A stretch of 63,143 nucleotides of DNA, the filler included, from Dugesia japonica (taxonomy: Eukaryota): assembly GCA_001938525.1 (NCBI GenBank). It is 6 parts of 6 records of this genome, joined end to end, with 100 filler letters (N's around TTAATTAATTAA, not from the genome) between each part and the next. Parts side by side here need not be neighbours in the genome. Positions count along the whole stretch, not along the records: positions 1 to 12,123 come from MQRL01590504.1; positions 12,224 to 22,350 come from MQRL01621098.1; 4 more parts are not named here. The stretch is one strand, 5' to 3'. The translations under genes were made by a program, and so were the position numbers. This document shows positions 2,823-26,425 of this stretch, one piece after another. Below the pieces are notes generated by a model, which was not told the origin of the DNA, did no database searches, and saw only the letters and a list, made by a program, of their open reading frames with translations. The first letter of the stretch is position 1, and each line of letters begins with the position of its first letter.

Positions 2823-2922
2823 TTCGACGCTCATACTAGGTTGGTTAGATCCGAACTCGTTCGATCTTGGAAGTTAAGCAGCTCTAAGCTTCGTTACTAC
2901 TTATAAGGTGAGCAGCGTCAAC
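2823..2922 (+). pseudogene. 5S rRNA pseudogene, internally deleted
   Basis: The 5S hallmarks CATAC, CCGAACTCGTTCGATC, GAAGTTAAGCA and GTTACTACTT...GGTGAGC occur in the correct order. The 5' TCGACGCT can pair with the 3' AGCGTCAA (helix I). About 20 nt of the 3' arm are missing. Confidence 0.8.
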
Positions 2923-2949
2923 TGAGTCTGGGTGGGGTTTAGTAAGGAA

Positions 2950-3260
2950 TAACCTTACACATTTACAGNGCAAAAAAGAGTCCACAACTTTGTATGTATT
3001 GCTTGCTTGTTCCAGTGATTTCGGTTAAGTCCTTTCAAATTATCTTAGAATTCCCTGCCTTAGAAGAATTTTGATCTATAAATCATCAAAAAAACACTCA
3101 AAATCAGCTAACAGATTCTGAATTCCTGCTATTTGATATCCTTACAACATCTAATCTATGGTACCCAGCAATGAGGTCTTCACTCTGAAAATGGCTTTGT
3201 TTATCGAAGTGTACTAAATACGTGTTGTTCCCTCTTTAAAGATTTAATTGGGTGCTTCGT
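2950..3260 (-). mobile_element. Possible highly decayed LTR-retrotransposon integrase fragment
   Basis: Broken frames contain NNTYLVHFDK, xGREFxD and ITGTSK..CVR, loosely resembling the rve core (SDQGREF...ER). Confidence 0.3.
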
Positions 3261-5199
3261 ATAATTGTTCACATTCGTACTGGTGATATGCAGAAAACAC
3301 TAAAATCAGAACAAAAACAAATAATAAAATATTTATTTGAACAATAATTAAAAATATTTTCTTTCGTTGGCTCTGATTACTTAATCAGCTTATTGTCTAG
3401 CAAATATATCGCTCTTAAATGATCAGAGTATTCTTTTAAATCAAACATAATTTTATAATTATCCTCCTTCTGTATATTCTTTGACCAATTTTCTTTGCAT
3501 TTTTTCTTTAAAAGTTTTCAAAGAATCTATTCTTGGTTTTCTGTTAATTTTCCATTGATTTGTAACTAAAAAATACGCAGGTAATATTTATTGAAACAAA
3601 GTTCTTCATTTTTCATTTATCAATTTTGACCTTGTATTTTTTTATTATTTCATTTTCAAAATTAAGTAAAAATTATTAAAAATTCTTTTGTTGAAGTAAC
3701 ATCTAGGCAACTCAATTTTAATTTAACTTTTGAGTAACACATCTAGTGAAACTTCTCAAAGAATTTGATCTAGTGTTCCTGTTATATATTTTTGGAATAA
3801 AGCCAGTGTTCCGTAGTTTGAGTGCATGTGCGTATTTCTTTGGTTTGGGNNNNNNNNNNTATAAGACTCACTTTGCTTTTTTTGCCTCTATAGCTATTTA
3901 GTTTCTGGAAGCTTTTGTAGAAACTATCCTTAGCCGCATATTTTTCAATATCTGTCCCCCTCAGTGCGACATCTATTTACCCATGAAACGGTTCTATTTT
4001 AATTTTTTAGTGGTTTTTTTGGACAATGTAGTTCTAATATGGTGCTTATTTTTGATATTGCCTCACATACATCGTTATGTTTATCGATTTCATTAATTAC
4101 ACTTAATGTGAAAAGAACTCTTTCGTATCTAATTTGTGACATTAAGTTATTAGTAAAGTATATTTGCACTCGCAAGGGTATTATGAAGGTAGGTAAATAC
4201 TGAAATAAAAAATAATCATACGCACATATTAGTGATAAAAAGCTAATTAATTAATTTTCAAAACTTTAATGGAAAACAGTAGTTCTGGAGTATCATCTTT
4301 AACTCTTCAAGAGAATATCAATTTATTCTCTAAATATTTATTCATCCAACTCAAGAACATGTTTTTTCAAAGCATACAATTATACATTCATTTATTTCAT
4401 TTTGGAGAATCTTTGTTCACCTTATTAATTCAACCAATTCTTTTATCTAATTCACTAACATTATGACCCAAACAATATTCTTCTGCCCTTGGAAATGGCA
4501 CGGATATTCACCCAGATGGGATTAAACTTGTTTATCTTCTTTTAAGCTGTAAGTAAGAGTAAAATTGTTATTGATTTATTTTTCTGACATTTGCTACCGT
4601 ATTTATTGTTGTTTCTGGTACAACTCATTCTTCTCATTAGATAATCTATATAATTTCATCTTTTGAGGTCTTTTAATGACTGTATTTATCACTCCACATC
4701 ATACCACTTTTTAATGGCCAATATTTTGGAATTTCAAAAATTATGGAATCCAATCGACATTCCTTCAAACCATTGTAACGTTATAACTGTTTGAACTATG
4801 ATTTTCTAGTTTTGGTCTTTGGAATCTATAAATCTGTTTCATCGATAATTATCTCTTTCTTAAAGGGAAATTTTCGTTTTCACCTGTTTTCAGTTTTTCT
4901 GAAATTAATTTCATTTTTGTAATAAATTATTTTAATTTGGATGATTTATTTTATTTATAATATATTATTTATTTATTTTATTTCTTTATTAATTTATAAT
5001 TAATACATGTTTCAAAATTAATGAAAATTAATATACATATAAATTTCATTAAAATTATTATTAAAATTATTACTTCAATAAGTAATGTACTAATTTGATT
5101 AAAATTGGTGTTAACTTCATAAGAATATCTACATAATTTACATAATTATACACACAAATTTTAATAAGGTCACTAAAACATAAATAAATATAAATTATT

Positions 5200-6025
5200 T
5201 CAGGACTAAGTAAAGATTTAGGACTTGCTCTCAAAGAATATGAAAAATACAAAGTTAAGAGAAACATTGACAACACGTCTTGTTATCAAATTCACGGAAA
5301 TGAGATCCGTAGCAAAGATACACGAAGACAAGGTACATTATCAACGAATTTCTAAAAAGGAAGATATCTGTATGATACAAAAAAGATGAGTTATGCAAAT
5401 GTAGTGAAACCACATATTAATAGAGTTTAAGAGGATAAAAAGAAAATACGTGTAAATAATTTGTCATTAAAAGGAACACACAACCAGTGATTATGGAAGA
5501 ACACAGGTAATGATGCGTAAACCGACAGTATTGATGAGTTATTACGCAAGATGTTAGTTTAATAAATATAGAGGATTTTCAGAAACTTGTGAAGAGAAAC
5601 TTCAAGAGGGACAATGTTATTGCTGTGGAGAACATGGACATAAACGATACCAATGCTCGTTAAGAGACAGGTGTTTAATTTGCAGCAAGCCTGGCCATAA
5701 TTTTAGATACTGTCCGATTTTATAGGGTTGGTCTAATGGAAGGAACACTAAACTTTTATAATAATATTATAATATCCCAGAGAGGATAAGATGTTCATAG
5801 ACACTGGCGCTAATTTTAGAACATCAGTACATTCCGTAGTCAATGCAAAGAGGAAACGGAAGCGGAAATGGATCCAGACATTTGACAGCTCATGAAAAAG
5901 TATACTGTGTGACAAGTAAAGAACTATTAGCTATACACGGATTTGTACAAAAATTCAAACAATATTTGTATAGAAAGAGATTTCTAGTAAGAACAGACCA
6001 CAAAGCGTTGGTGTTTCTGAAAAAC
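5200..6025 (+). mobile_element. Ty3/gypsy remnant: gag zinc knuckles joined directly to an RNase H fragment
   Basis: 5615-5713 reads CYCCGEHGHKRYQC..CLICSKPGHNFRYC (two CCHC knuckles). 5775-6025 reads YPREDKMFI..SRHLTAHEKVYCVTSKELLAI..KQYLY..FLVRTDHKAL, nearly identical to 57170-57430. Confidence 0.9.
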
Positions 6026-8115
6026 AGATGCTGTTGAGGTAGGTCGTATATTAATCAATGCGTTATATAAGATATCCAGCTTGCCGATAGATTTTTCAAT
6101 AAATTCTATTGGCGAAATTCTTTTTTCAGTTTATTATATTTATTATCTGTAATGGAACTTATTGCATTTTGCAATTCTTTTCGTAATCCAGCTTGTGGTG
6201 ATAATTCTANNNNNNNNNNNNNNNNNNNNNNNNNNNNNNNNNNNNNNNNNNNNNNNNNNNNNNNNNNNNNNNNATATATTTGTTCCATTATTTTTTCAGC
6301 AAATGAAATTGCTGCATTTTTTGAAGAATTTTGAAAATAATCGTTAGAACTTGGTACATTCCTACCACGTAGATAAATGATAAGTGCCATTAAAACTGGA
6401 TCTCTTTTTTCATTCATCCTTCTTTTAATAGCATGTAGCAGCTTCTTGGGATAAGTTGCAACTTTTCAAACAAAAATTTGTAAATTTCCTCAACTGTTAT
6501 GAGATCTGCATTATTTTTTCTTAATTAACTAACGGCAGCTTTAATTAGTGAAAGAACATCAATATGGTTTTGTAGAACGAAAATATCATTTAAGGAAATT
6601 GGTTCTAAATTCAATTCCACTAAAGATTTATTGACACATTCTGATAAAATTAAAAATCGTCTAATCATTACAATCAAAGAATTCCGTCTTGTTTTGATGC
6701 CAATTTCAACTCCAGTTTTTCCCCATTTTTGAACTAAATTTTGTTGCAAAACNNNNNNNNNNNNNNNNNNNNNNNNNNNNNNNNNNNNNNNNNNNNNNNN
6801 NNGGTTAAAAGATGTTAATAATTTGACCAAAATCAATACTCAATGTCATAACATCTTTATTATCTTCAACAAACTCCAAATTGTTATCTAAATACAGATC
6901 TTTTCTGAAATCTTCTACTTCATAATCTTCAATTTCATCATCAACAAAATTTTCGATATCGTCCTAGTCCAACGCTTTATTAGAAGTAGAATTTATTAGT
7001 ACATTAAAACAGTCCATTACGGCCAAATGGGGTGCATGATTATAGCAAAGTTTATTTAAAACATCCTATATTTTCCATTATTTTTTCATTACAGCTGCTG
7101 CGTCGTTAGTTGATACAATAACATCACTTTTTAAAGAATCTCAAAGTTTGCATGCTTAGCTTCAACTAAATGTTTAATAGTTTCTGCATTTCCTTGCTTA
7201 AACATTTCCATTGAACGCAGTTCAATTTATTTTGATTCTATTCTAAGTGCATGAACTGTTACGTTTACATAACGTAAGATGCTGCAATCTGTCCATTCAT
7301 CCACAGTTATAGCAAATTTACGATTTGGTTTTTAAAACTTTTCAAATTTATTTCGCAGTTCAATACGTTTTTCTTTATTAAAACTGATGATGCATTTTGA
7401 AATAGTTGTTGGCATTTTATAATCCTTTTGTTGCACGTATCCAGCTATTGCATCAGATTTGCTTATTGCTTGGATTAATATACCATCAACTGCTGAGACT
7501 TTTGACAATATTTAATTAAAAGACTGTTTATTTTACAAAGTTCAACTATAGTACTTGTTTCAATTTTTGGCTTTTTCTGCGGAACATTGTTTTCTTCATA
7601 ATTTTCACTTGATACAGATTTAGATATAAATATGTTGTGTCCTAACTTCAAATTATTAATCATAGGAGTGGTTGAACTTTTACACCCTACATTCGCGTTA
7701 CAGCTACCACATGTAGCTTCACCAGTTTTTTCTTCTTTCTTAAAAAACTTCCACACCTCGGATTTTTTTGAAATGGTTAAAAATCTAAATATTAAAAATC
7801 TAAATAATTTTGTAAGATAATCTAAAAAACTTCAATTTGCCTTTCAAATATAGGAATATCCAAAGAAATTAATGTAACAATTGATTACGATGTAATGACA
7901 ATAAAAATTACTTATTGCTACTGTTTTTCAAAAGCCAACTAAAATAATGTCACACAAAACACATAACGAAAATTCAAAATGCAATTCTTTCAAACTTTTT
8001 TCAAAGCTTACTTTGATTGAATTTTTACAACTTATAATTTTGTATCTTTCAAAAATATTCGAATGTGAAATAGTCAACTAACACACAAATATATTCAAAT
8101 ATCAAGTATTCGAAT
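6026..8115 (-). mobile_element. hAT transposon remnant (BED-finger transposase pseudogene)
   Basis: BED finger SEVWKFF..ATCGSC..H (7630-7765); FAITVDEWTD..RYVNVTVH; STNDAAAVMKK; CYNHAPHLAV; TRRNSL (RWNS motif); C-terminal LYNALINIRPTSTAS truncated at 6026; TATTCGAAT subterminal repeats at 8057-8115. Confidence 0.9.
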
Positions 8116-8687
8116 AGAATCTATAAGAATCTATAGAATCTATTAGAATCTATAATTTATTATTAATATTACTACAACCGCCATTATTCATTATTGCGAC
8201 GGTGATTACAAATAGTTACCAGCGACATTATATTCAGTATTATTTTGATCCTTCCACCCTTACCGCCCATGAACACCATTAACCTTACTGTGATTATTAA
8301 CAACGTTCACATCTAAAATCCAACTTCCTATCTTTTTACAAGGAATAATAATTAGTAAGGTTGTCCTTATAAGGCTTTCCAAGTTACTGCGCCAAACTTA
8401 TGCTAATTTCGGTCACCATTTCTAATAGTGACCAGCCATACTCTACCTTTTAATATACCTTTAGTGAACAAAACCAAACGTGTTACATAGAAGTTATACA
8501 AGCTAGACGATGGTTTGAGAAAGATTAATCGTTTAAGTTAATCCTACGTTGGTTTGTAATTTCAGACTATGGATGGCATACATATAAAGATGTAAACAAC
8601 CGCACTATGTTTCATCGAGTTCTGATTTCTTAAATCTTGTGGATACTATTGCGTTGTTAATTTACTCGAAGTTAATTTAAGTGGAAG

Positions 8688-8858
8688 TTTGAACCCGACT
8701 CAAAGAGATCCGAGCAGGCACTCAAATTAAGGTTATGAGTCAATGTCTCCATTCAAAAACTCTAATTATGAAATGTTAGATCAAATTCTTCGCGTATTCC
8801 AGTGAGGACTGAACCCTAGTCCCAATTTTTAACACACAACTCCGGTGGGACCCAAACA
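8688..8858 (+). mobile_element. LTR-like terminal repeat, copy 3 of the structured family
   Basis: Collinear with the reverse complement of 10034-10210: GAACCC, GCACTC..GAGTCAAT, TTAG..AAATTCTT, TGAGGACTG and CAACTCCGGTGGGACCCAAACA. Preceded by purine-rich AAGTGGAAG. Confidence 0.75.
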
Positions 8859-9139
8859 ATTATTTAACATGAGTTTGAGTATGCATGTTTTGAAATTTAT
8901 TATGTTTATTAGATTGATGTATTTGTGACTGAGTATGTCCTCCATTACGAATACAGTAAATATTTCCAAAATATAAAATAAAAAAACTATGCCATAAAAT
9001 ATAATTTAACTGTCAAAAGACAAAAATTTTATTGCTGCTGGCTTGATATCAATAGCGTATTTAAGTTTTTTGAGAATTAAACAAGAAAGTTTTTAGTTCC
9101 GAAACTAAAACGAAAGAAACTATTACAGAAGACTTAGTC

Positions 9140-9549
9140 TAAACAAATCGGAGCTCCTGCTCATTGGTCTGTAAATGTTCGGGAATTTTTTAATGAAAAT
9201 TGGGTTGGATGGGGTGGTGCTCTTGCATGGTTTGTATGATACTCAGAACTTGGTTCGCCCGATGTTTTCCTTTGGGGTCAACTGTAAAATATAGTTTACA
9301 AGCGAAACCCTGAGTAACCAATAGAATTCATCTAAAATGAATATTCTAAAATAACTCTACAATTGATAAAAAATTTGGTGTTGACTTATAAATATCGTTT
9401 GCAGCAATTAAAAGTTATAAGAAATCTTGTGAACACTACAAGCTTTAATTAATACATTTTATAAAAAATGTCTTTATTTTTCATTACCTTTTTGTTTTAT
9501 GTGAGTAGTTGATGAATTAAATTAGAGATACTTATCAAACCACCTGTAT
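9140..9549 (+). mobile_element. Tc1/mariner (DD37D/maT-like) transposase 3' remnant
   Basis: KQIGAPAHWSVNVREFFNENWVGWGGALAW..SELGSPDVFLWGQL*NIVYKRNP matches the family pattern QQDGAPxH..WIGR..WP.RSPDL.P.DFFLWG.LK..VY. Ends in TIR-like CACCTGTA. Confidence 0.8.
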
Positions 9550-9983
9550 GTATACGACATTTATTATTTTTAATTTCAATATCTTGGTAGCCAGAAACTT
9601 AATAAAATCAGGACTGTTAGACGAAAATATAATTATTTAAAAGAACTTTATGATTAAATAAGTAAATAATCACATGAGTTTTAAAGTTGGAATACCGATT
9701 TAAGTAATCTCAGAATAAGACAAATAAGTCTAATAAAAATAAAGAAAATTAATTGAAAAGAAATAAAATCTAGAAAAATATAATCAAGGGAGTTAAAACA
9801 TAATTCAATATTTTATGTTTTAAAATTTAATTATAACAGAAAATGACAACTAAGTAAAAAACTTTAAAAAAATTTTTTAAGGGCATTTCAAATGCAAACG
9901 TAAAATCCAACATGAAAATTCTCGATAAAATATAAAAACGTCGTTAAATATTATCATCATTATACTAAAAACGGTTTATATAT

Positions 9984-10033
9984 CAGGGCTGTCCAAAGTC
10001 TGGTCCGCAGTCTCATCCAAAAATTTATAAAAT
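9984..10033 (+). mobile_element. hAT (Buster/Charlie-type) terminal fragment interrupted by the LTR-like element
   Basis: CAGGGCTGTCCAAAGTCTGGTCCGC resembles the Buster-type TIR CAGGG.TGTCCAAA..GGCCCGC. Confidence 0.45.
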
Positions 10034-10210
10034 TGTTGGGGTTCCACCTGAGTTGAGTATCGAAAAACGGGTGGCTGGGGAGAAACAGNCCTCAGGGGAC
10101 CCTTTCAAGAATTTAACCTAAAGTCCCTAGTTTAGGTATTCAGCGTAGAGTGATTGACCTCCTACTTCATAGGAGGTGCACACTCGTACACCTTTAATTT
10201 GGGTTCATCA
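10034..10210 (-). mobile_element. LTR-like terminal repeat, copy 1 (177 bp, TGATG...CAACA), with PPT-like AGAGGAAA at 10219-10212
   Basis: Homology with 19409-19583 stops sharply at ...CAACA. Termini are TG/CA. A purine tract lies immediately 5' on the minus strand. Confidence 0.75.
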
Positions 10211-10277
10211 GTTTCCTCTATAAGCATAGACAATTAATTAAACAGAAATTAAGAAGAAACATCTATTATAATGACAA

Positions 10278-10658
10278 CTATAATTCCTCCAAAACTCCAG
10301 GATCTAACCACTGGGCTGGGTCAGTCACCACAAAATCAAAGGCGGCCATATCAGCGCTATTGTCCCACTGTACCCAAGTGGGGTTGCCCAGCTAGCGAGA
10401 AAGATCCGAGATGTATTGCTTTAAAAAGTCTATTTTTCGTTGGAGCAATTGCTTGGTTTCTTCTACGAGAGCTTTGGTTTGAACAGCCAGTTCGCTCTGT
10501 TTTCTAACAACCAGATCGAGCTTTTTTATGAGTTTTTTTCGCTGGTCAAGATGCTTAAGGATTGGCCTGTCTGCTTTTCGTTTAAGGTGCGTCTCTACTA
10601 AAAGACGGCGCATTTCTGTGACATCGTCATAGGCTATTAGGAAAAGTAATTTGACGCA
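10278..10658 (-). pseudogene. Accessory coiled-coil ORF A of the LTR-like element, copy 1 (disrupted)
   Basis: After acceptor TTTATTTAG|TG it reads RQITFPNSL*RCHR/..LIKKLDLVVRKQSELA..KIDFLKQYISDLSR*LGNPTWVQWDNSADMAAFDF..AQWLDP. It aligns at protein level with 19651-20022. Confidence 0.75.
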
Positions 10659-10832
10659 CTAAATAAAAGGACATTAATGACATTCATATCTCGCTAATGA
10701 TACTAATTAAATATAAAGGTTAGAAAAAAATTGGACGAAAATAAACACAAAAAAAATATAATTTTATTAAACCGCATTTAAACAAAGTTTACGGACGAGA
10801 GGTCTGGACCCCCTTGTCCACCATAAGTGGTG

Positions 10833-11226
10833 TCAGTGGCATGATTTCCTTAAATTCATAATATCACCAACCAGTTTATTCTCCCTGTCTTGGTAGGACC
10901 AGATAATTTCGGTAAGTGACTCCAATTGGGCTTTCCAAACCCTTTCCTGCTGGTGGGATGCCTCGGCTTCTTCTTTAAAGGCCAAGGTCTTATTTTTATA
11001 GCGCCGAACTTTGGCATCAGCAGATGCGACATCGGCTCCCCAGCGACGTTTGGCCAATTTATAGAGATCCCATGTGATTTCGGTTTCGTCACTGGAAGCT
11101 CTCATTTTCTTGGTCGGGGCTGTAGCGCGATTCAATGATGAGTGCACTAGAATAAACGAAATCAATAAAACACTATATAAAGATTTGGGTTAATTGCATC
11201 AACCACTCACACCTAGTTTTGCTCAT
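10833..11226 (-). CDS. Accessory coiled-coil ORF B of the LTR-like element, copy 1 (two exons)
   Basis: ATG at 11226, exon to 11211, intron 11210-11147 (GTGAGT...TTCTAG, 64 bp). The splice gives in-frame MSKTRL|HSSLNRATAPTKK..AKVRRYK..DRENKLVGDIMNLRK. Homologous to 20204-20511. Confidence 0.7.
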
Positions 11227-12123
11227 TGGGCACTCTCCAGTCATTACCTTTATTCTTTAAAAGAAAAAAAACAAACTATTGACAAAAAAAAATTTGTTTT
11301 AAGTCTTGAAACAACTATATTTTTTATTGGATTGAAACTATAAACAAGATGGATCACTATTTGGTAGGTGCTGAGTCGATTACGGGTGTGGTATTCTCAG
11401 AGTCCTCAACACCCGATAGTTCTCTTACACCCCAGAGCAGATTGGTGATAAATAATCATATAGATTATACACTTAAATGGAATAAAACATAAAATATACA
11501 TTCTATTTTACACAATACTTAAACTCAAAATAAAATCAAAATAAAATCAAAATTAATTACTAGAATATTACATTGTCAATTGTAAGGAGGAAAACTAATT
11601 GAAGATACCAACTAGACATTATCACAATAATCCACCCTGGGGGCTCTACGATTGATGTTGATGGGGCAGAAATTTCACCTACATTTGCATAATGGTAATC
11701 TTTCCTAAATAATTTACAAATGACTTGTCGCTAATCCACAAGAAGAAATTTCGAGGTGTCTATATCAATTTATTTTTGTGGTTCCCCTGGCTAAATGATC
11801 TGATTAAGAATTTTCATACTAAAATATCCATACATTTCTAAATTAGTCAAAGAAGAAACGTCCAAAACTCAGATTCAGATATAATTTGAGGATAAGTGGA
11901 TCTACAGTAATTCCCTGGTAACCCATAATTACCGAAATTCCAATGAGATGTTTTGGATTTTTCAATTTGGCAATAATAAGAAAAGACAGAAGTGAATAAA
12001 GTTGGAAGAATTAATTAAATTAAAGATGAAAAAATTGCCAAATTAAAATAACAATTGAAGAATAAATTAAATTAGATGCGAATAAACTGCTAAAATAAAA
12101 TGTCAAAGAAAAGTGAATAAATA

Positions 12124-12223
12124 NNNNNNNNNNNNNNNNNNNNNNNNNNNNNNNNNNNNNNNNNNNNTTAATTAATTAANNNNNNNNNNNNNNNNNNNNN
12201 NNNNNNNNNNNNNNNNNNNNNNN
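12124..12223. other. Artificial scaffold-joining linker
   Basis: 44 N + TTAATTAATTAA (stops in six frames) + 44 N. Confidence 0.97.
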
Positions 12224-15124
12224 AAAATCTATTATAAAATGATATTATCAAAACATATTAACTAAAGACAAAATTATAACCTAAATAAACCAAAATTATC
12301 GGCTGGCAATTCAATTTCGCAACATAAAGTTATCAGTTCCTCATTTCAATTGAACCTCAAACCAATATAAAAACTTAATTATTTATTTATCTGAAACCAT
12401 TTATGATTCCATAAGGAAAAAGAGGAGAAAATATTCAATCGAAGAAACTTGTTGACAATTATTTATATTTAACTTGCATATTTAAACAAGTGATTTGTTT
12501 ATGATTTGTAAGTGTTTATTCATTTATCCTTCATTTACGATTTTCTTTGCTTTAAAGTTTAATTTTCAACTAAAAATTTATATTTCCATACAAACTAAAT
12601 TGATAATAAATGAGATATTTTAGATACTTTTTAAAAAGTTATTTCAATATTGAAGTTTTGTACATGAGTAAATTTAATTAAAAATTTTATCTAAATTTTT
12701 ATTTGTAATTAAATTAATTAAAATTATTTTGACCAACTTTTATTGGTCAAAATTTTTCTTGAAATTTATAATTAATTCAAATAATAATTATAATTCAAAT
12801 GAAATTCAAAGAAATTGAATATAATTTAAAATATTTTCAATAAAATTTTATCTTCCTTCTAGACGTCATTGTATATTACAAATTTAAATTGTTTAAACAA
12901 ACTTGTTATTTTTATAAACTGTTATTTATTATAGTAACAACATTTTACTTTTTAATTTCGATATTCAATTAATAAATTGAAATAACCAATTAATAATTAA
13001 TATAAATAAATTAAATATTTAATAAATTAAATAAGTAAAGAATTTCTTAAATGTACAAAACACAAATTGGAACATTNNNNNNNNNNNNNNNNNNNNNNNN
13101 NNNNNNNNNNNNNNNNNNNNNNNNNNNNNNNNNNNNNNNNNNNNNNNNNNNNNNNNNNNNNNNNNNNNNNNNNNNNNNNNNNNNNNNNNNNNNNNNNNNN
13201 NNNNNNNNNNNNNNNNNNNNNNNNNNNNNNNNCAATTATGTAATTTCTTCAAGTAATCAAATTAATTGTGAAAAATTGAATTAAGACCCTGAAAGACTTG
13301 TCTAAACATTAATAAAGGACCAATCTATTTAATAATCAATGGTTAACATATAACTTTCACCAAATAGTTTTTAACGTTTCAGCAGAAATTGTAAAATTGT
13401 TTATACTAATAACTGATTTACAACCAATACTTTGTTTAGCAATTTTATTTCGACTACCAACTTGTACAGAGATAACGGGTAATCTCCAAAGTGTGTGGCG
13501 ATACACTCATATTTATAACCAATGTGTCATAATACTTATATGCATTGGAGAAACGTACGTCATCTCTTCAATATATAATTATATCAATATATAAGAACCT
13601 TTTAATGGATTAAAAAATTATACCTGAAGATTATTATTATCATCATCATCATTATAACAATATTATTGACAATGACCACAAAAAACATATTTATATATTT
13701 AAATAAATAAAATAATAAATATTTTATAAGACGATATTTATAAAATAGCATTTTAATCAATAATATTTAAGAAAAATAAAATTATTTTCAATGGTTAAAA
13801 AAACTAAATATTTTTTAGTCGGTAAATAATTAATATAAAATTTTTCACTAAAATTCATTTGAATAAATTCTATTATTATTTTTTCCCATTAATTTACTCT
13901 TAAAAATATTTAGTTTACGGATTTCAGATTTTGTCAAGTCACATAATAACAACGCTGATATTATTTTGGAAATGAAACCTGTCACAATGGTATACAGTGG
14001 ATCATTGATAATTAATTAACTACCTTGACAACACAACGCTTTGTTTCGTTTTACTTACTGCTTCGCTGAATTTTTATACTCTTTTCAAAGAGAATTTTCA
14101 ATACAACAGTCTAATACTACGTATACAAACATAGGTAATAATAAAATTCAATTTAATTTCAAAATTTTTAATTGAATTTTAAATATAATCTACGAATTTA
14201 TTTTAACAAAGATTTGTTTAATTTTATCGATTTAAATGGTTAACAGGTTTTTCTTAATAAAACATTCAACTTCTCAAACGAAACACTTCAAAACAAACTT
14301 ACTTTATCTGAGACGACTCTGAAAAAGAAAAACTTTTAAATATTAAACGAAATACAAAAAAATTACTCAGTAGAACGATGATCTTTATTCATATCGGACA
14401 TATTTTGAAAATAATTAATCTACAACGAATGACTAATTTAACTATGAATAAATGAAACACTTTTCAAAATATAAATAATTAATTATTTAATAAAATTGAT
14501 GTATTAAAAGAAATATGACCATGAAAAATGTTTTTTTCATAATTTAATATAAATATAATAGAATTTGTAATTGTTTTATCTTTGCTATTTTAATAATGTT
14601 TTTTTCTTTTATTATTTTATTATATTATATATTATTATATTTTATTTTATTCTTTATTAATTGTACTTATAATAGTAGCAATAATAATAATATTAATAAT
14701 ATTTTTTTTAATATTTACTTTAACATAAAAATTGCATGAATAATATTTTTGCTACTTTTTAGAATTTTGTTAATCTAAATTAAATGATAAAATCTAAACA
14801 GCTAAACTTTGATTTCTTAACTTACATTATTAACTTTAACTCAAATTTATTTTTTAAAAATCTGTGAATGAATTGTGAACTGTGAGTTAAAAAAAAAGAG
14901 GCGACATTGTTTACTGAAAATTAAAGTTTGAATAATATATTGTATCAGTTATATATAAATGAAATTACTTTAAACTTTTTATAAAATCTTGTAAATACAT
15001 GATTTTCCATTCCAATTTGAAATGGCAAAAGTCAATTTTGACAAAAACTAGATTATTTAAATAAACTACATTTAATTATTTATTGGTATAGATACTAAAC
15101 TTGGTAAATATAAATGCATATTTC

Positions 15125-17105
15125 TGAATCAACTTTCACAGTCAGAGGTCGAAAATCCAGAAAGAGACGAATGTCTTCTTTTCTCCAGATACTTATNAAC
15201 GGGGTGTTCCATGTTGAATTGCACTTTCGTATAATTCCATTTTCAAGAAGATTACGTATCCCTTCGTTTATCTTATCCTCTAGGTTCATATGTGTCTTCC
15301 ATAGCTTAAAATCTATAGGTCCTCCTTTTGATACTCTTTTATGCTTCACCAGTTTTGTACATTTTATGTCCCATTTGTCTGCTATAAAGATATTTGAATG
15401 TTTTCTTATCAACTATTTGATTGTGCTATTTTCCAATGTATTTATCTCACTCAAAGCATTTTGACATCTTTCTTCATCTGTAATAATTCTTCCTAAATGC
15501 GCCTCGATATATCAAATCCGATCCTGATTATCACACTACTGTATCTCTCCAATTTAGTTCTATTCCAAAACTGGTCTGCAACTGAATGCCACCAATTATG
15601 CTGGGGATTATCTGTTCCATAACTATGAAATTAATCCATCTATTCGTATTGCATATCTTCACTTCTATTTCAAATCTTCCTTTGGTACTTAATAAACTGT
15701 CTTTAGCTCACCGTAGTCTATCTTTTGTTGTTAATAACGAGATATCCTTGAATTTGTTAAACACATCCATAAACATCACATTAATTCTTGCTCCGTTATC
15801 CAGTAGGCATTCAAACTCCATGTTTTGATTCTTTATCGTAATACTCGGTCTACTCTGAATTGTACCCAATCTAACCACACTTTTCCCCATTCTTCCACTG
15901 TTGCGCTTGTTGGTTTCACTGATGTTTCTCTCTTGATTACTGATATCTCTTTCTTTTAAGAATTATAAACTCGTTCTTTGACATCATCCTCTATATTATT
16001 GATATGACTACTGTTACTATAACTGTCGATATTTTGGGGATCACCCATTAGATTTTGAGTTCTACAGCTCCTACTATGTCCTCTGTTGGCGGAGCTTCTC
16101 TGTTTGGGTTTCTCCTTGATTCATATACGTTTGCGTCATATCTGTTGTTACCAAATCTAAAGTTTTCATATCTGTCGTCCTCATATTCCTTGTTACTTGT
16201 CTCATCATCTTTCACTGCATTGATGTTAACATGCCTACATGAAAATGGGAGCATTTTTACATCATTTCTCTTATATTCCTAAAGGATATTCGTTCCATCT
16301 CTTGTACTCCATCTTTGTGAAAATGTTTTCGGCTTGATAACTGTTCTTGTTGCATTTTTCGCACTTTATCTTGTTTCACTGTCTTCTTATATGCCCTACA
16401 CTTCCACATGCGTGGCATGTAGGAGGGTTTCTGTCTGGGTACTCCCAAATTATGTGTCCCAACACATTCCAAAATTCTGTTTTCCCTGTTCTGAACTTCC
16501 TTCTGGTATTTAGCCATTTGAAGGTTGATTCCAACATCCTTGGTATTGTTCTTTTTGGTTCTGCGTATAATGCCTCCTTGTAGCTACACATCACGGTTAT
16601 TCCTTCTGTCTTTTTGTCGATTCTTCAAACGTCTGTGATAATTTTTTTTCTTCCGGTTCTGAAACCTTTTTCATCAAAATCTCTTTCTTTGCCTTCTTAT
16701 GTGTCGCTGCGTTTATCAAGAGTGCTGATATTAACTACTCTATTCCCAGATTATGGCTAAGCACTTTATCTGCCAGTTTTTCTACATCGTGGTAGACTAA
16801 CTCATTATTGGTATCACCCTGCCTGTAACAAATTCTAGGTCTTCAAAAACGTCTCTTGATTTTTTCACCAGTAGTTGTAGCCTTGCTTCAAACCCTTTGA
16901 CTTTGTTCTCTGGTGCTTCATATTTTTCTTCAAGCTTCGGGTCAATCATCTTACCGATTACAATCTCTTGTAAATCTTTGGGAATTTAGCCCGCTTTGAA
17001 GAATCGACCGATGTCTTTCAAGAATATGACAAGATTGTCACCTAACGTGAAAGGTCTCGGGCGTAACAAATCTGTTATTAAGTTTGAGCTTGTTGTGGTT
17101 GCCAA
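15125..17105 (-). mobile_element. Ty3/gypsy gag-protease-RT(N-terminal) remnant
   Basis: Gag start LLRPRPFTLGDNL..RFF; knuckle TCHACGSVGHIRRQ; protease CLLDNGARINV; RT start GIIRKCNSTWNTP..IRLFLDFRPL. Many stops and frameshifts. Confidence 0.92.
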
Positions 17106-19408
17106 GTTGCATAACCTATTAGCAAGAAAAACGTTTTCTTCATCAAACATTTATTTAAGACAAAGTTACTGTATATTGAAAAACAGAATTAGGAAAGTTA
17201 TAATATTCAAAAAAATATGCGCAATAATTATTTTAATTATTTTCTTGAGATATTTTAAATTTCAAAAATTTTATAAATACTTTAATTGCGCATAAACGAT
17301 TCAAATATCATTTTCACAAACCCTATTTTTGATGGCAGTCATAATTTTATTTTCAGATCTTGAAATATCTTTTTGTAATCTTCTATTTTCTATTGAATTC
17401 AAAAATTGAGAATAATGAGGTAAATTAAGAACTTCATGATTGTTATGTCTTATTGAGAATTTTTCACTTCTTGTCATTCATGTAATATTTAGATTAATAA
17501 TGAAGTATAAATACAGAATGTATATTTATTAAAGGTATTCAGCTTTTAGAATATAACACCATATCAATAGTTTAAATTAAGTTTAAATTATTTATTTTTG
17601 GTCAAAATTAAACTTCATAATGTCAAATTGGGGCGAAAATCCTATAATTGAGGAAATTTTGATTACAAATTATAATTTTATTTCTTACTATTTTGACAAT
17701 TCTTATCAATATAAGAATTACCAGTTAATTATGTTTTTAGAAACTTAATATTTCAATAGAAATAAACATAGAGATATTGTTTGCCTTATTAAATTCTTTT
17801 AATTTGTTATATATTATGGGGATAGGTGTACACCAGACCAGTTGTAAATATATAAAAGTTTTTATAATTTTTCAATGATTTTTTTAAAGTTTATGTAAAT
17901 ATTTAAATAGTTCTTGTAACTTTTTGAGAGGTTACAAGAACTAATTATTAAGATTTATTTTAAAATTATTTAGTAAAGTGTATTCTTGTGTTTGTATTTT
18001 AAAAATGATAATTTTTTAAAATATTTTGTTTTAAAATTCATTAAAATAAAAGCTTCGATCAAAATTTGTTTTTTTGGTTTTTGATACAAAGGAATTGACT
18101 TCTGACATTTTCAATTTAGAATAATTTAATTTAAATTTTAAAAATAATTTTAAAAATTAACTGTAAAATAGATTTTAGTAAATAAAAATAAATCTTTAGT
18201 TTTTTTTACCTTAAGAACCCGGACAATTTTTTGTTTACTCTTCCCATAATTTTCCGCAACTTGAAAATATCCCATAAACTCGTTCGTTAGTAAATACCTC
18301 CAACCTATCTTCTAGTGTTGGAACTCGATTATTTTCGTATTACAGATATTTAAAACGTGATTAATAGTAATTGCGAACGGGTAGATAAATTACTGGTAAG
18401 GTTTTTCAATGAGTATCACATTATTTAATATTGAATGGGTTCTGTGATCATTTTTCAAGAGAAATGTTCTCACTGCTGTTGCTTGTTATTTGTATTTTAA
18501 ACCTATTATTATTTATGAGACCAATAATTCTAAAGTTCCTTTATCATAATTTTATTAATTATATGACAATAATATGATACTTAAATTAANNNNAAAATGC
18601 ATACCTGTTTCTACAACAGGATATAAATAGGTTCAAATAGATTACTTAGCTGGAATAATTGATTTATCACGAGAAATTTGTCTCAATTAGGCTAATAAAA
18701 CTTGACAAAACTTCTAAATTTCTTTTGTAGAATTATTTTGAAATCTGATTTCTTTCTGATTGGTGATCTTTTTTAAAACTTTTTCTTCGCCGTCTGATTG
18801 GATTTGTATTTTTAAATTTTCTGTGTTGCACTTGGTTTTTTATTGGTGGGTATTTTAAGCAATCACTTGATTTTTCATGCTTTGTTCTAAGTCTTTTTTC
18901 TGGTCCCTTATTGGTCTATTCTTCATAGCCTTTTCCAGGTTTTCTTGAAGTTTTCTCATTTTTGGCATAAACAAAATTGAACTCCCGTTGCTGAATTCTA
19001 ATCAATTTTTCTTGTCTCGATATTTTCCAATTATTCGTAGCGAAGTTATTCGTGTTTTCTTCTTTTTCTACTAATTGACCTTTGTTTTTTTAACTAATTA
19101 ATTAATAATTTCTTTATTCTTTCCATTCTATTTTTTCTAATTTTAATAAATTTAATTCGTATTTTTAATATATTTTAATTATAGCTTATCAAATGTCTTC
19201 TTTTTTTCTATTCTAATTATTTTCTTTATTTATTCTATTATTTTCTTAAATAATTCCTAATTATTTCTAAATTAATTAACAAGAATTCTGAATTTTCTTA
19301 ATTCTTTTTATATTATTCATAATTGATTAAGACTCTGTTTGATTGGGGTCCCTCTACTTTTGATCGTCTCTTTTTCCGGGTGTTTCACTCCAACCATATT
19401 ATTACTAT

Positions 19409-19583
19409 TGTTGGGATTCCACCTGATTCAAGTGTAGCAGAAGGCGGCTGGGGGAAAAGACAGCCCTCAGTGAACCCTTTCAAGAATTTACCTAATGCCC
19501 CTTTTTAGGTTTTAGATGTGAAGTTGCTGACTCCCAACACTTATTTGGAGTACTCACTTAGACATATTTTTATTCGGGTTCCA
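19409..19583 (-). mobile_element. LTR-like terminal repeat, copy 2 (~175 bp), with PPT AAGGGGAAAG at 19595-19586
   Basis: Aligns with 10034-10210 and shares the ...CCAACA end. The polypurine tract is adjacent. Confidence 0.75.
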
Positions 19584-19650: not shown

Positions 19651-20022
19651 TTACAATGATTCACATAAAGTTTAACGCTTCAGGGTCAAGTCACTGGGCA
19701 ATCTCGCCATTCGCAAAATCAAAGGCGGCCTTATCGTCATCGCTGTTCTATCGAACCCAGGTTTCTTGTTCGAGGCGGTTTGACAGATCGGCGATGTACT
19801 GTTGTAAAAATTCAATTTTATGAATGAGAATTTGTTTAGTGTGTTCAGCCAGTTCACTTTGCTTTTTGACTATGACGTCGAGTTTTTTAATCACTCTATT
19901 ACCTTGCGTGAGATGGTGCAGAAGAGCACGCTCATTCTGGCGCTTAACGTGACGTTCGAGTAAGAGTTTTTGAATTAACCGGTGGCAGCGGTGAAGACTA
20001 TTTGGAAGGCAAATTCTGGGCA
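19651..20022 (-). pseudogene. Accessory coiled-coil ORF A, copy 2
   Basis: Acceptor TTTTCAG|TG; reads PRICLPNSLHRCHR..KKLDVIVKKQSELA..ETWVR*NSDDDKAAFDF..AQ*LDP. Its stops sit at positions that are Trp in copy 1. Confidence 0.75.
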
Positions 20023-20203
20023 CTGAAAAGAAACACCTAATTAAGAACCAAACCAAATATGATTGACATAAAAATAGAAAATAAAATTACCATAAGAAAT
20101 TTTGTTAGATGAAAACAAACCAGTTTANNNNNNNNNNNNNNNNNNNNNNNNNNNNNNNNNNNNNNNNNNNNNNNNNNNNNNNNNNNNNNNACATATCAAT
20201 CAT

Positions 20204-20511
20204 TTAAAATTCTAACGGCATATGTTTCCGTAGCTCCAAAATATCGGCGACCAGTTTATTTTCACGGTCATGGAGGGACCGGATAGTATCAGCGAATGAT
20301 TTCAGCTGTTTCTTCTACAGCCGTTCCTGCGAGTGAGAAGCTTCTGATTCCAGCAGATATGTCTGACATTTGGTCCGATAACGCTTAACTTTTGCGTTGG
20401 CGTTAGCCGTGTTGGCTTCCTCCTTTCTTTTTTGCCAGCATATCTCAATGTCCTTGCTGGTTTCGCCTACTTTCTTAGTGGGAGCGACTGAATGGTTGAG
20501 CGATGAATGCA
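20204..20511 (-). pseudogene. Accessory coiled-coil ORF B, copy 2
   Basis: Acceptor TTCTAG|TG; candidate donor A|GTAAGT at 20617/20616; reads HSSLNHSVAPTKK..AKVKRYR..ERL*KKQL..DRENKLVADILELRK. Confidence 0.75.
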
Positions 20512-22350: not shown

Positions 22351-22450
22351 NNNNNNNNNNNNNNNNNNNNNNNNNNNNNNNNNNNNNNNNNNNNTTAATT
22401 AATTAANNNNNNNNNNNNNNNNNNNNNNNNNNNNNNNNNNNNNNNNNNNN
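22351..22450. other. Artificial scaffold-joining linker
   Basis: 44 N + TTAATTAATTAA + 44 N. Confidence 0.97.
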
Positions 22451-23732: not shown

Positions 23733-26204
23733 GAAGAAGACATCATATTACATGAATTCAATGCTGTAGAGGAAAGTAATCAAGTTGGTGGTGCATTTAA
23801 TTTAAGTGTTTCAAATGAATATGTTTTTATAGAAAAGGGACTTATATAGATGTCACCAAATTATAAAAATTGACATTTAAAGTTGGAATACTAATCAAAT
23901 TATACTACCAGAAAATTTGATTAACCAACTATTTAAAATAATAGATGAAATAAAAGAAGTTAAAATACAATTTGGACTCAACGTGGAATTTATAAGGTAT
24001 GAGAAGATCAAAACTTCTGGAATATTAACTTGAGCTGTTCTACTAAGTGACAGATTTTTTGAAGATGGTATTAAACAATTGAATGAAAAAATTCCCATAA
24101 GGACTGAGCTCGGTTCTAGTTGGATACTGAGTAGGACTTTGGAAGGGAATTTCAAAATCTTAAAGATTCAAATTATAAACAGACTGTCGAGACATAGTTA
24201 TATACCGACACCGGAGAATTTGAAAAAGAAAAAAGCAATTGTTAACGTTAAAAATAGAGATAATAAATGCTTTATTTACAATATTTTAGCTATTACTAAG
24301 TATGACCAAGTTCATACAAACAGATTTAGAGAATCAAATTATCATAAATATATGTCTGAGTATGATTATGAAGAAATAGACATGCCAATGTGGTTGGATA
24401 ATATCAGAAATTTTGAAAGAAAAAATCCTGAACTTTCAATCAATGTCTTTTCATGGAATGTAAACGATGTAAAAGATAATGATCAAGATGTTTTTAAACA
24501 TCCCAATTTGGATAGTATCCATAGATCCAAGGTGGTTGATGGTGAGAAGATTTATTTGTTGATGTTAGAAAATGGTAACAACTACCATTATACAGCTGTA
24601 GTTAACTTAGACAGTTTAATGCATAGAGATGATAAAAACAAAGTTACAATGATCCAATCAATATGGTGTCGAAATTGTTTTAACGGATTTAGAAAGGAAA
24701 TAGCTTTTGAGAAGCATCAGGTAATTTGTGAGAAGATTCAAACCGGAGCAACATTATATACCATGCCAACAGATAAAAACTTAGAATTCAAGGAATTCTC
24801 TAAGATAATGACACCACCATTCGTCATATATGCTGATTTCGAATCAGTTTTATCATCAAATGACGTATATTTTCATAGACATATGCCGGTTTCAGGAGGA
24901 CTTTTATTAGTAAATAATTTTACTGACAAAACAACATATAAACAGTTTATCTGTGATACCTGTATATATGATTTTTTGAAGGAAATTCATGAATAAATAG
25001 AATTACGGAGGCTCCCTATTACGAAGAGAATGGAAATAAGCCAATGGTAATATCAAGAGTAGACGAAATATCGTTTGCTGCCACCACAAGTTGTTATTTA
25101 TGTAAGAACACATGGTCTGTACCAGTTCGAGATCACAATTACTTTACTGGTCATTATTTATGTGCAGCATGTTCTAAATGTAACTTGAGTGGAAGTGTGA
25201 AAATGCAACTACCTGTTGTATTTCACAATTAAAGAGGGTATGATTTACATCATATATTGAAATATGGATTAAATTTTCACAGTGGAGCCTAAATTGTATT
25301 ACAACAACAACAGAAAAGTTTCTATGCTTAATAGGGCATGAAACTAAATTATCAATAATTAAGTTCATAGATTCATATCAATTTATAAATTCTTTACTAG
25401 ATTCAGAGGGAAAGTCCTTAAAAGAGACACCTTTGACTTTTAACGAATTTAAAGATAGAAAAATTGCAACGTCAAAGGGGATATTTCCATACAATTATGC
25501 AACCAGTTTGTAAGTTCTGGTTGAAACAACACAAATGCCACCAAGATGGAATGAGATCACAAAGGAAGAATATAAAAGGCAATGGAAATGTGGAGAATCA
25601 CCGATTTTAAGAACCTTCTGGACTGGTTTATTTGAAATTAGATGTTTACTTATTGGCAGATTTCTTCCAAAAGTTCAGATTGAAATCAATATCACACAAC
25701 AAATTGGAGCCATTGAATTTCTTTGGTATACCTGGTATGAGTTGGGCATCAGCCTTGATGTCATTGAAGGAACCTGTAGAACTGTTGATGGACTATGACA
25801 TGTATACCTTTTTCGAAGGTGGTATAAAGAGTGGATTGACATTTATCAATAAACTTTATGTCGCCGCAAATGAAAACACAGATTTGTTATATATAGATAT
25901 GAACAATCTGTACGGATGGGCACTAAGTCAAAAATTACCATATAAAGACTTCGAGTGGGTGCATACTGATTTAGAATCAGTATTACACAAATGTCAAGAC
26001 GATTGATCTGGATGCGTTGTCATACGGATACACTATGGAGGTAGATATCGTTATCCCTGAAGAAATCCATGACAATCTAAAGGATCTACCAGTAGCTGCA
26101 GAACATTAATGTGCTCCAGGTAGTAATATAAAAAAGCTAATGTTGACTCAATACGCTAAGGATAATTATGTTTTATATTGGAAACTGCTACAAATGTATA
26201 TGAA
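23733..26204 (+). mobile_element. Polinton/adintovirus protein-primed DNA polymerase B pseudogene #1, 3'-truncated
   Basis: SYIPTP..AIVNVKNRDNKCF; zinc finger WCRNCFNGF..H..C; ExoI VIYADFES; CYLC..VRDH..TG..CSKCNL; PVVFHN*RGYD; FIDSYQF; KGIFPY; LDVYLLAD; motif A LLYIDMNNLYGWALSQKLP. Motifs B and C are absent because the gene is cut at 26204. Confidence 0.93.
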
Positions 26205-26425
26205 AGTAGTTGTTAAATGGGCTGGATGACCCCCATAGCGTCTTTCTGGATTTTTCATCATGTTCAAAATGATTGTTTTGGTGGGGTTTTCCCATTTAAT
26301 GACAGAAAATCCAAAATTTGAATCAATTAGTTAAATTTATTAAATTAAATAAATGGAACCATGCAAAAAACGGCAAAAAATCCAAAAAAACGCCACAAGT
26401 GCTATCCAGTCATTTAACAACTACT
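26205..26425. repeat. Imperfect inverted repeat with AGTAGT...ACTACT ends, putative left terminus of Polinton #2
   Basis: AGTAGTTGTTAAATGGGCTGGAT..GCGTCTTTCTGGATTTTT matches the reverse complement of 26375-26425, AGTAGTTGTTAAATGACTGGAT..GCGTTTTTTTGGATTTTT. Confidence 0.75.

Follow-up and report, generated by a model that had tools for sequence, protein, structure and literature searches.

Tf1 of yeast starts its reverse transcription without a tRNA: RNase H cuts off the first 11 nt of the RNA, which then prime the minus strand of the DNA, within a 5' UTR described as a 'pretzel' (PMC10085805). Tf1/Tf2, Tj1, Tosmo and sushi are presented as self-primed Ty3/gypsy elements in the reports cited here (PMC10085805, PMC7175516, PMC4600332). 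In these accounts yeast Tf1 is a demonstrated case of self-priming, and the mechanism is predicted in TAR copia elements and, across fungi, vertebrates and non-seed plants, in the Tf1/sushi group; no invertebrate case was found in a search of mostly non-subscription literature. In the Ty1 RNA, nucleotides 1-7 are reported to pair with nucleotides 264-270 in a 5'-terminal pseudoknot (PMC4974528). Fungal GalEa Ty1/copia elements are described as carrying a Conserved Hairpin Site (CHS), a palindromic conserved 9-mer after the LTR with its complement 12-41 nt further on (PMC5445492). Burro and GYPSM1 are giant planarian Ty3/gypsy elements, with decayed fragments described in a related species (PMC6431247); their giant polyprotein is characterised by MATH, BIR, BCL2, ankyrin and env domains.

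We analysed a 63,143-nt stretch of Dugesia japonica DNA (the window), in which a unit of ~200 nt, the end of an abundant repeat, occurs in five diverged copies (c1-c5, Table 1). Our main reading, to which we give a probability of roughly 0.4, is that the unit is a two-state RNA signal for self-primed reverse transcription. As in the Tf1/sushi group, no tRNA site was found (here with the tRNA table of one planarian), a segment inside the putative LTR is complementary, in two copies, to a candidate site past the LTR end, and two further duplexes can be drawn between the sequence flanking that site and LTR sequence downstream of the candidate primer. Several features set it apart from that group: 7-9 bp can pair, not a perfect 11; a distance of 11-12 nt separates the site from the best-conserved AACA; the candidate primer forms one arm of a covarying hairpin and would be hidden there; spliced accessory exons are carried within a long putative LTR; and one of the three copies fails. 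The unit shares with Ty1 a 7-bp long-range pairing between an R segment and the leader, linked in Ty1 to initiation of reverse transcription, but Ty1 has a tRNA-iMet site. It resembles the GalEa CHS in having a hairpin at the LTR end, where a tRNA site would be; here, however, a stem of 4-5 bp changes in sequence together with the hairpin-1 arm, whereas the CHS consists of two conserved 9-mers, and the bases following AACA differ among c1-c3. In being abundant, long in its LTR and rich in accessory ORFs, in an AT-rich animal genome, it is similar to Burro/GYPSM1, but the ORFs scanned here, from a window that lacks the internal regions, contained no Burro domain.

The repeated unit and its probable working strand

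Copies c1 (10.0-10.2 kb) and c2 (19.4-19.6 kb) are homologous, with 78% identity over 111 nt, and c3 (8.7-8.9 kb) is inverted relative to both. Over the aligned unit, identity between copies ranges by segment from 49/92 to 61/82. The unit is the best-conserved part of the repeat: DNA contig depth, which is not a copy number, is 27,602 over 10092-10219 in c1, falls to 1,045-3,474 in the four to five bins that follow and is 14-20 where the sequence is unique. In the 62.3-kb copy, to which a hairpin had been assigned in the initial annotation, hairpin 1 is the only one present; a small inverted-repeat element cuts this copy. In the decayed fifth copy, hairpins 1-3 are largely broken and the long U5 stem is retained; it has no downstream motif of its own.

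Table 1. Features of the repeated unit and of its surroundings (positions in the window)
Copy	Feature	Position	Strand	Remarks
c1	Hairpin 1, extended	10143-10191	-	Stack of three stems separated by internal loops, the uppermost at 10157-10177; z -5.74
c1	GAACCC box, then ATTAAA-type A-rich word	10201-10206	-	~30 nt before the hairpin-1 arm
c1	Hairpin 2	10116-10137	-	Compensated variant in RNA reads
c1	Invariant AAATTCTT linker	10107-10114	-	Identical in c1, c2, c3 and c5
c1	Long U5-type stem	10034-10106	-	Hairpin 3 (10073-10090) on top; CCCAACA at end
c1	Sequence beyond first AACA	9984-10033	-	Like c2 motif; no pairing with c1 arm (-3.1 kcal/mol)
c1	Two decayed coiled-coil-like accessory exons	10270-11146	-	Predicted acceptors AG/TGC at 11146 and 10658
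c2	Hairpin 1, extended	19516-19565	-	5' arm ACTCCAA (19551-19545), candidate self-primer
c2	Hairpin 2	19490-19510	-	Stem as in the initial annotation
c2	Linker, variable segment (19481-19468), hairpin 3 (19446-19465), end box to CCCAACA	19409-19489	-	
c2	Candidate primer site (19396-19387) and leader (19386-19378)	19378-19396	-	Leader pairs with variable segment
c2	Two decayed accessory exons	19672-20511	-	Predicted acceptors at 20511 and 20022
c3	Hairpin 1, extended	8706-8754	+	5' arm 8720-8728, candidate self-primer
c3	Hairpin 2 (8761-8780) and linker (8783-8790)	within 8761-8858	+	
c3	Variable segment (8791-8804), hairpin 3 (8806-8822), end box to first AACA	within 8761-8858	+	
c3	Second TAACA (8865-8869), candidate primer site (8870-8880), start of leader	8865-8884	+	
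c4	Box and hairpin 1 alone	62337-62392	-	Cut by small inverted-repeat element at 62218-62332
c5	Fifth copy, decayed	3668-3858	-	15.6 bits, E 0.006

The unit ends in an LTR-type AACA and therefore reads as the R-U5 region of an LTR plus the leader. The LTR 3' consensus is given as YNYAACA (PMC3601003), which is fitted by CCCAACA in c1 and c2 and TTCAACA in c5 at the first AACA, and by TTTAACA in c3 at the second site. The terminal motif was matched at the 3' end only, and the 5' end of the LTR was not found. The GAACCC box is kept in c1-c4, and an N gap cuts c5 at that place; in c1, the box and the following ATTAAA-type word may represent a core promoter or a poly(A) signal. Among 207 RNA reads from three runs, no pile-up of starts or ends reached the threshold, and the strand was not decided by the reads; no RNA dataset containing the c2 stretch was found. 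The functional strand is most likely that of the spliced accessory exons upstream, which is minus at the 10 kb and 19 kb copies and plus at the 8.7 kb copy. These exons lie on the strand of the unit, their predicted acceptors are conserved, the c1 and c2 proteins share 50-52% amino acid identity, and the top score was obtained in the sense frame (99 vs 57 bits).

Covariation in the hairpins

All ten stems of the initial annotation (10/10) were recovered with the positions and letters given there, and the AAATTCTT linker between hairpins 2 and 3 proved invariant as claimed. The structure is larger than first described: hairpin 1 is a three-segment stem of ~49 nt, and hairpin 3 caps a longer stem. 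With the structure derived from the same three copies, 10 of the 23 pairs in hairpins 1 and 2 together are changed on both sides, a number reached in 0/500 shuffles (mean 4.0), and 92.8% of cells pair, compared to 23.5-40.3% when the partners are slid. With a structure taken from c1 only, the pairwise comparisons, which are not independent, gave 7, 12 and 9 two-sided changes in 29 pairs, where 3.1, 7.2 and 4.6 would be expected (p 0.002, 0.0004 and 0.0009). The lower stems of hairpin 1 covary most strongly (4/8 pairs). A held-out family member represented in RNA reads of two runs (9 and 3 reads) has CCTAGC/GCTAGG as hairpin 2, in which two pairs are altered on both sides. The loop of hairpin 2 is G-rich in c1, c2 and this read variant.

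Covariation thus exceeds the available controls, in an alignment of three full copies plus read fragments. The test of whether pairing is kept, given which sides have changed, was weak (p 0.13, 0.046 and 0.13), and hairpin 3 was absent from the RNAalifold prediction on the sense alignment. Short stems are common in the window (2,441 stems of at least 5 bp), but three GC-containing stems of at least 5 bp co-occur in only 17 of 2,941 intervals of 120 nt. Compared with shuffled sequences, hairpin 1 folds better in c1 (z -5.74) and not in c2 (-0.87) or c3 (-0.40). We consider a selected RNA structure at the LTR end probable. The proposal of a selected structured element in an LTR-like repeat is upheld by the covariation and by the conservation of the unit; the TAR-like, packaging or accessory-protein-binding roles put forward with it would be speculative. 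With Rfam 15, 0 matches were obtained at the gathering score over the window and 0 at E up to 1 over c1 plus c3 and over c2, and none of its ribozyme covariance models matched. Pattern scans gave 0 matches in viral contigs, and the matches in metagenomes (11/11) and prokaryote genomes (3/3) all lacked the hairpin context.

Predicted pairing between the hairpin-1 arm and the putative leader

Three features absent from the initial annotation point to priming of reverse transcription: the stems at the base of hairpin 1, the long stem in U5 and the complementarities that reach beyond the LTR end. The 5' arm of hairpin 1 is complementary to 7-9 nt just beyond the LTR end in c2 (7 bp) and c3 (9 bp with one G-U); this and the other long-range pairings were recognised post hoc, from three copies. 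When the unit is compared with the first 28 nt beyond AACA, the longest Watson-Crick helix that c2 and c3 have in common is 7 bp long, begins at the arm and contains one matched change; 7 bp was reached in 1/1,500 column shuffles. The energy of arm and site is -9.4 kcal/mol in c2 and -9.3 kcal/mol in c3 (equalled for c3 in 10/5,000 shuffles), and in both copies the cognate pair is the best. The arm of the held-out c5 copy (3823-3815) is a perfect 9-nt complement of the c3 downstream motif, and this was the best of 20 combinations (-11.6). The site adjoins CA in c3 only. In c1 the arm and the downstream motif fail to pair with each other, which counts against self-priming. The c1 flank seems partly homologous with that of c2 and pairs with the c1 variable segment; it also fits a hAT-end pattern, an ambiguous match.

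The variable segment has its own leader as its best partner in all three copies, with -10.9 kcal/mol in c2 (65/5,000 shuffles) and -6.5 kcal/mol in c3 (601/5,000, not significant alone). The 3' arm of hairpin 1, once freed, can pair with the end box (8 bp and -14.7 in c2, -5.3 kcal/mol in c3). Hence three pretzel-like duplexes are possible in c2 and, more weakly, in c3, and c1 lacks the central one. Pairing of the 3' arm of hairpin 2 with the linker before the site is strong in c3 (-7.1; c1 +0.4, c2 -0.5), and for the variable segment and the end box the cognate combination was best only for c1 and c5, of four. In the three cases computed, the two folds differ by about 3 kcal/mol or less.

We propose that the unit comprises the R-U5 end and the first leader bases of an abundant family of retrotransposons with a long LTR carrying accessory genes, and that it would function as RNA on the strand of the accessory exons, with two folds. 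Fold I, for which LTR sequence would suffice, would consist of hairpin 1, hairpin 2 and the long U5 stem topped by hairpin 3, and would conceal the 5' arm of hairpin 1. Fold II would require the leader: the arm would leave hairpin 1 for the 7-9 nt site beyond the end of the LTR, its former partner, the 3' arm, would bind the end box, and the variable segment that follows AAATTCTT would pair with the leader, giving the three duplexes described for Tf1. Transcription would start at the arm, and cleavage would free the primer. An RNA that can switch in this way, as in two of the three testable copies, might start its own copying without a host tRNA. In a more specific version, which we regard as unlikely, the self-primer would be locked in the covarying hairpin in the 3' LTR copy and in accessory-gene mRNAs, and only at the 5' end of the genomic RNA would a three-way strand exchange release it onto the site, at a distance of 11-12 nt from the end of the LTR. 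If this version is true, the element has an RNA switch of its own that keeps priming apart from the expression of the spliced accessory genes encoded in the LTR, which belong to no known family. Against the main proposal, an RNA starting at the arm would not include the lower part of hairpin 1, where covariation is strongest, since it lies 5' of the arm. In a family of very high copy number, with thousands of natural variants, one alignment could test both folds and also show how the primer is concealed in the 3' LTR copy.

The same place and strand could instead hold a conventional R-U5 signal, either TAR-like or serving poly(A) control, packaging or strand transfer; the pairing of arm and leader would then be a Ty1-like 5'-terminal helix or incidental, and priming would rely on a tRNA site that we did not recognise. 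We find this possible though doubtful. The most-covarying lower stems come directly after the AATAAA/ATTAAA word in c1 and c2, self-priming fails in c1, the G-rich loop of hairpin 2 would fit such a signal, and the 7-bp pairing of the first bases of Ty1 with its leader is described as needed for reverse transcription and not as a primer (PMC4974528). Set against this, the downstream motifs vary among copies and track the arm in c2 and c3, and they are complementary to no tRNA 3' end in the table of S. mediterranea, a single species that may not be the host. No tRNA genes were present in the window. A 9-nt match of the c1 flank to the anticodon arm of tRNA-Met is probably due to chance, as it has no counterpart in c2 or c3. 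Should this plainer reading hold, the unit would still be a covarying R-U5 structure outside the Rfam families, of moderate interest.

The sequence past AACA may also have been kept for a local fourth hairpin with the LTR end, like the GalEa CHS. RNAalifold predicts such a stem of 5 bp in all three copies, c1 included, with one two-sided change; yet it covers only 5 of the 7 complementary bases, leaves the co-change of the hairpin-1 arm unexplained and lacks the conserved 9-nt palindrome, and we consider it improbable.

Nature and strand of the repeat

It is slightly less probable still that the repeat is not an LTR, being instead the end of another retroelement (DIRS/Ngaro- or Penelope-like) or the bearer of an unknown ribozyme. 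No paired LTR or target-site duplication was seen in the window, where c1 and c2 reach contig ends (12123 and 22350). The accessory exons had no relatives by word search, by a full HMMER scan or among viral loci; Pfam matches were weak and below the cut-off, and Atlas matches were low-recognition only. A decayed gag-PR-RT lies 2.2 kb beyond c2 on the same strand (gag-pol at 15-17 kb, with an RT piece that is Ty3/gypsy-like through P0001), but across an N gap at 18590. The LTR-type end motif, the A-rich leader on the sense strand after c2 and the lack of any Rfam match at E up to 1 argue against a non-LTR origin.

There is a slim chance that the matched changes reflect DNA-level repair of quasi-palindromes, or a single-stranded DNA signal, and not selection on RNA. 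The shuffle results for c2 and c3 would agree with this, as would folding energy, which does not choose the strand (the consensus is slightly better on the opposite one, -23.8 vs -21.25). Internal loops and a 1x1 mismatch, however, stay in register among the copies and have not been perfected, G-U pairs replace Watson-Crick pairs on the exon strand, hairpin 3 included, and the long-range pairings covary too.

Least probable is that the opposite strand works, its conserved end box serving tRNA-Gln as a primer site ahead of packaging hairpins. In c3, an unbroken run of 10 bases is complementary to the 3' part of a planarian tRNA-Gln as given in PMC7962491, and a G-U-rich long-range stem is predicted on that strand. 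We rejected this site, as in each of the three copies the bases facing the 3' CCA of the tRNA do not line up with it, c1 and c2 match at 8/10, no repeat is found on the side required for a 5' LTR (depth 17.9 at 9836-9963) and the accessory exons have the reverse orientation. Loose ends resembling poly(A) at 10738-10771 lie on a genomic A-run and were dismissed.

Copies of the repeat end and covariation in its hairpins

The ~200-nt repeat end that carries hairpins 1–3 (the unit) was found in five copies in the window, which has a GC content mostly of 13–40%, many decayed mobile elements throughout and the look of a draft animal genome rich in AT. Copy c5 scored 15.6 bits (E 0.006) with the covariance model, the next match reaching 11.4. 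Unrelated contigs of ~10 kb are joined here by artificial spacers (N44-TTAATTAATTAA-N44 at 12124–12223, 22351–22450, 32359–32458, 43220–43319 and 53735–53834), so neighbours across a spacer are not genomic neighbours. Small elements with long terminal inverted repeats, like the one in c4, also lie at 18040–18086 and 51639–51730. A 177-nt tandem repeat is located upstream of c4 (62577–62879); each of its units agrees with the beginning of c1 exon A at 16/17 nt and has an open frame of coiled-coil-like type.

Positions of the unit copies and of the accessory exons
Feature	Position	Strand	Remarks
c1	10.0–10.2 kb	-	
c2	19.4–19.6 kb	-	
c3	8.7–8.9 kb	+	inverted
c4	62.3 kb		interrupted directly after hairpin 1 by a small inverted-repeat element (62218–62332)
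c5	3668–3858		decayed; match to covariance model from c1–c3
Accessory exons, c1	10270–11146	-	more short frames out to contig end
Accessory exons, c2	19672–20511	-	more short frames out to contig end

Mapping of 4,705 contigs of DNA run X1 on 8300–12123 gave a summed depth, which is not a copy number, of 27,602 over 10092–10219, 1,045–3,474 in the next five bins and 44–13,276 from there to the contig end, compared with 14–20 in unique bins, 9836–9963 included. These values do show that the repeat is very abundant, that the hairpin core is its best-kept part and that the repeat boundary lies just left of the core. The c3 subfamily is rare (depth 45).

All ten stems listed in the initial annotation were present exactly as written, and hairpin 1 exceeds its earlier description, comprising 4 + 4 + 5 + 3 bp with internal loops held in register. 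We aligned c1–c3 without reference to structure and folded the alignment with RNAalifold, which predicted 38 pairs, 11 of them with two-sided changes. Hairpins 1 and 2 showed two-sided changes in 10 of 23 pairs (shuffles 4.0 ± 1.5, 0 of 500 as high) and pairing in 92.8% of cells versus 23.5–40.3% with slid partners, the structure behind both figures having come from the same three sequences. When the fold of c1 itself served as a blind template (29 pairs), double changes numbered 7, 12 and 9, against 3.1, 7.2 and 4.6 expected. Seven helices of at least 4 bp are common to c1–c3, and the hairpin-1 core has three covarying pairs, matched in 2 of 150 column shuffles. Independently of the window, RNA reads from two runs, 9 in one and 3 in the other, give hairpin 2 as CCTAGC/GCTAGG. 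The change A10171G was found in DNA contigs (9,576 of 9,796 depth), and the matching C stands at the partner position in a loose-end consensus of 34 contigs (agreement 0.74). Counted against these results is a conditional covariation test (p 0.13, 0.046 and 0.13); c2 and c3, each alone, folded no better than shuffles, and pairing falls to 79% once c4 (misaligned by MAFFT) and the decayed c5 are included. Whatever its role, a selected RNA structure at the LTR end is likely, with palindrome repair at the DNA level a lesser explanation of the matched changes. The observation itself is confirmed, and the proposal of a selected structured RNA is partly supported by covariation; proof of R-scape grade would take more than the three full copies available.

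Strand and anatomy of the unit

Two decayed exons, homologous between c1 and c2 (50–52% amino-acid identity), lie upstream of the unit in both copies, and each starts at a predicted acceptor, AG|TGC, that is conserved; the best exon frame scored 99 bits versus 57 on the other strand. No relatives of these exons were detected in the searches made for them. These spliced accessory exons, which fit no known family, lie within or beside the LTR-like repeat, and a second depth peak (13,276) falls in one part of exon A (10860–10987). Read on the exon strand, the unit has a GAACCC box and an A-rich word ahead of hairpins 1 and 2; the invariant AAATTCTT and a variable segment come next, then hairpin 3 and, before AACA, a conserved end box. 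This end matches the LTR 3' consensus YNYAACA (PMC3601003). For 800 nt after c2 the exon strand remains A-rich. Beyond c2, at 17150–15095, come decayed gag (zinc knuckle), protease and RT; this piece matches P0001 at 45–52%, and the RT part reads as Ty3/gypsy-like through P0001, whose best structure match was the Ty3 RT. Because an N gap intervenes, its linkage to c2 is a candidate only. RNA reads from three runs (20, 152 and 35) lay in both mate directions, with 1 of the 207 at least 99% alike and no start or end pile among them, and the strand is not settled by RNA. The consensus energy was slightly better on the opposite strand (-23.8 versus -21.25) and the covariation term on the exon strand (-1.55 versus -0.44). 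The unit very probably acts on the exon strand; a tRNA-Gln site on the opposite strand is a lesser alternative.

In c1, c2 and c5 the variable segment and the end box form a long stem (z -1.7, 0.08 and -1.82, respectively) topped by hairpin 3 or another hairpin; c3, when folded by itself, takes a different structure. By eye, the invariant words AAATTCTT (10107–10114) and AACAAT (10031–10037) are complementary apart from a C-C mismatch and would close this U5 stem; the same pairing is seen in c2 and c3, and a perfect version in c5 with bases past AACA. At 10086, 11 reads of RNA run X11 exit the repeat just left of the inner arm of hairpin 3 and run into AT-rich sequence ending in TGTTAAGT. They perhaps represent a shorter-U5 or deleted subfamily, with an end starting with TGTTAA.

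A candidate self-primer in hairpin 1

The reading we consider most likely, with a probability of roughly 0.4, is an R-U5-leader RNA with two states, the leader being the sequence past the LTR end. Hairpins formed from LTR sequence only would conceal the 5' arm of hairpin 1 wherever no leader follows, and the second fold would offer this arm on a primer site in the leader, for cleavage and extension. The longest Watson-Crick helix by which, in both c2 and c3, the unit can pair with the 28 nt after AACA has 7 bp (ACTCCAA/TTGGAGT in c2, ACTCAAA/TTTGAGT in c3) and begins exactly at the 5' arm; this length arose in 1 of 1,500 shuffles. In c3 it lengthens to 9 bp, the site lying directly after a second TAACA, and the arm of c5, which took no part in finding the helix, is a perfect 9-nt complement of the c3 site (-11.6, top of 20 combinations). 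Two more duplexes can form beside the site. One joins the freed 3' arm to the end box, at -14.7 (c2) and -5.3 (c3); in the other the leader pairs with the variable segment at -9.6, -10.9 and -6.5 (c1, c2 and c3), the cognate pair being best in all three copies; shuffles were as good in 65 of 5,000 cases for c2 and 601 of 5,000 for c3. Constrained folding of the two states gave -43.1 versus -44.7 and -47.8 versus -50.5 in c2, favouring hairpin 1, and -36.0 versus -32.7 in c3. Ensemble probabilities from shorter segments favoured the long-range pairing at 8 of 8 start points in c3 and 6 of 8 in c2. The two folds are predicted to be close in energy.

The Tf1 'pretzel' comprises a central primer:site duplex and two further duplexes, both joining sequence next to the site to LTR sequence (PMC10085805), and in Tf1 RNase H cleaves after base 11 (PMC7175516). 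The arm:site helix with its two flanking duplexes resembles this layout, and on the best reading the unit would work as Tf1 does; it is not classed as a Tf1/sushi member because it shows no defining feature in full (other literature: PMC6431247, PMC4600332, PMC6317226, PMC8532177 and PMC13524379). No invertebrate case of self-priming came up in the literature searches made for it; the LTR, or its primer site, may already have been shown in the Burro genome and Tf1 structure papers.

The second-ranked reading, somewhat less probable, takes the unit for an ordinary R-U5 signal in which a long-range helix of the Ty1 kind (PMC4974528) forms and the primer is one not recognised here. The motifs past AACA matched none of the tRNA 3' ends in one planarian tRNA table (PMC7962491 supplement). 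The arm of c1 does not pair with its own downstream motif (-3.1; probability near 0). Should the c1 flank be foreign, c1 would represent a solo or 3' LTR, uninformative for self-priming; the flank matches a hAT-end pattern at 9984, one of two such matches in the window. Alternatively, since the flank is similar to that of c2 and pairs with the variable segment of c1 itself, c1 may be a genuine 5' junction that contradicts self-priming. The LTR end could be at the first AACA or at a point 11 nt beyond it. In hairpin 1, the lower stems require 14 nt upstream of the arm, so only the 3' RNA copy could form them if transcription starts at the arm; this would suit hiding of the primer and, equally well, an upstream start with a TAR-like hairpin, TAR and poly(A) hairpins being the comparisons here. 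A GalEa-like terminal hairpin (PMC5445492) and a non-LTR element are lesser explanations. Nine bases of the c1 flank (10010–10018) are identical to the anticodon arm of tRNA-Met, up to and including CAT, as given in the planarian table; c2 and c3 have no counterpart.

Other elements in the window

A separate, compact Ty3/gypsy pol family is present at 5765–6026, 41912–42076 and 57010–58880 (+), with an integrase zinc-finger match and a purine tract near 58864; tblastx gave no link between it and the 15–17 kb piece, and the two cover different domains. Decayed frames at 24034–29500 (+) and 36000–38100 (-) resemble, by eye, the protein-primed DNA polymerase of Polintons, and Pfam gave no match for the one piece searched. 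An exon at 47898–48218 (-) resembles, by eye, a cyclic-nucleotide-binding domain as in EAG-type potassium channels and would belong to a host gene.
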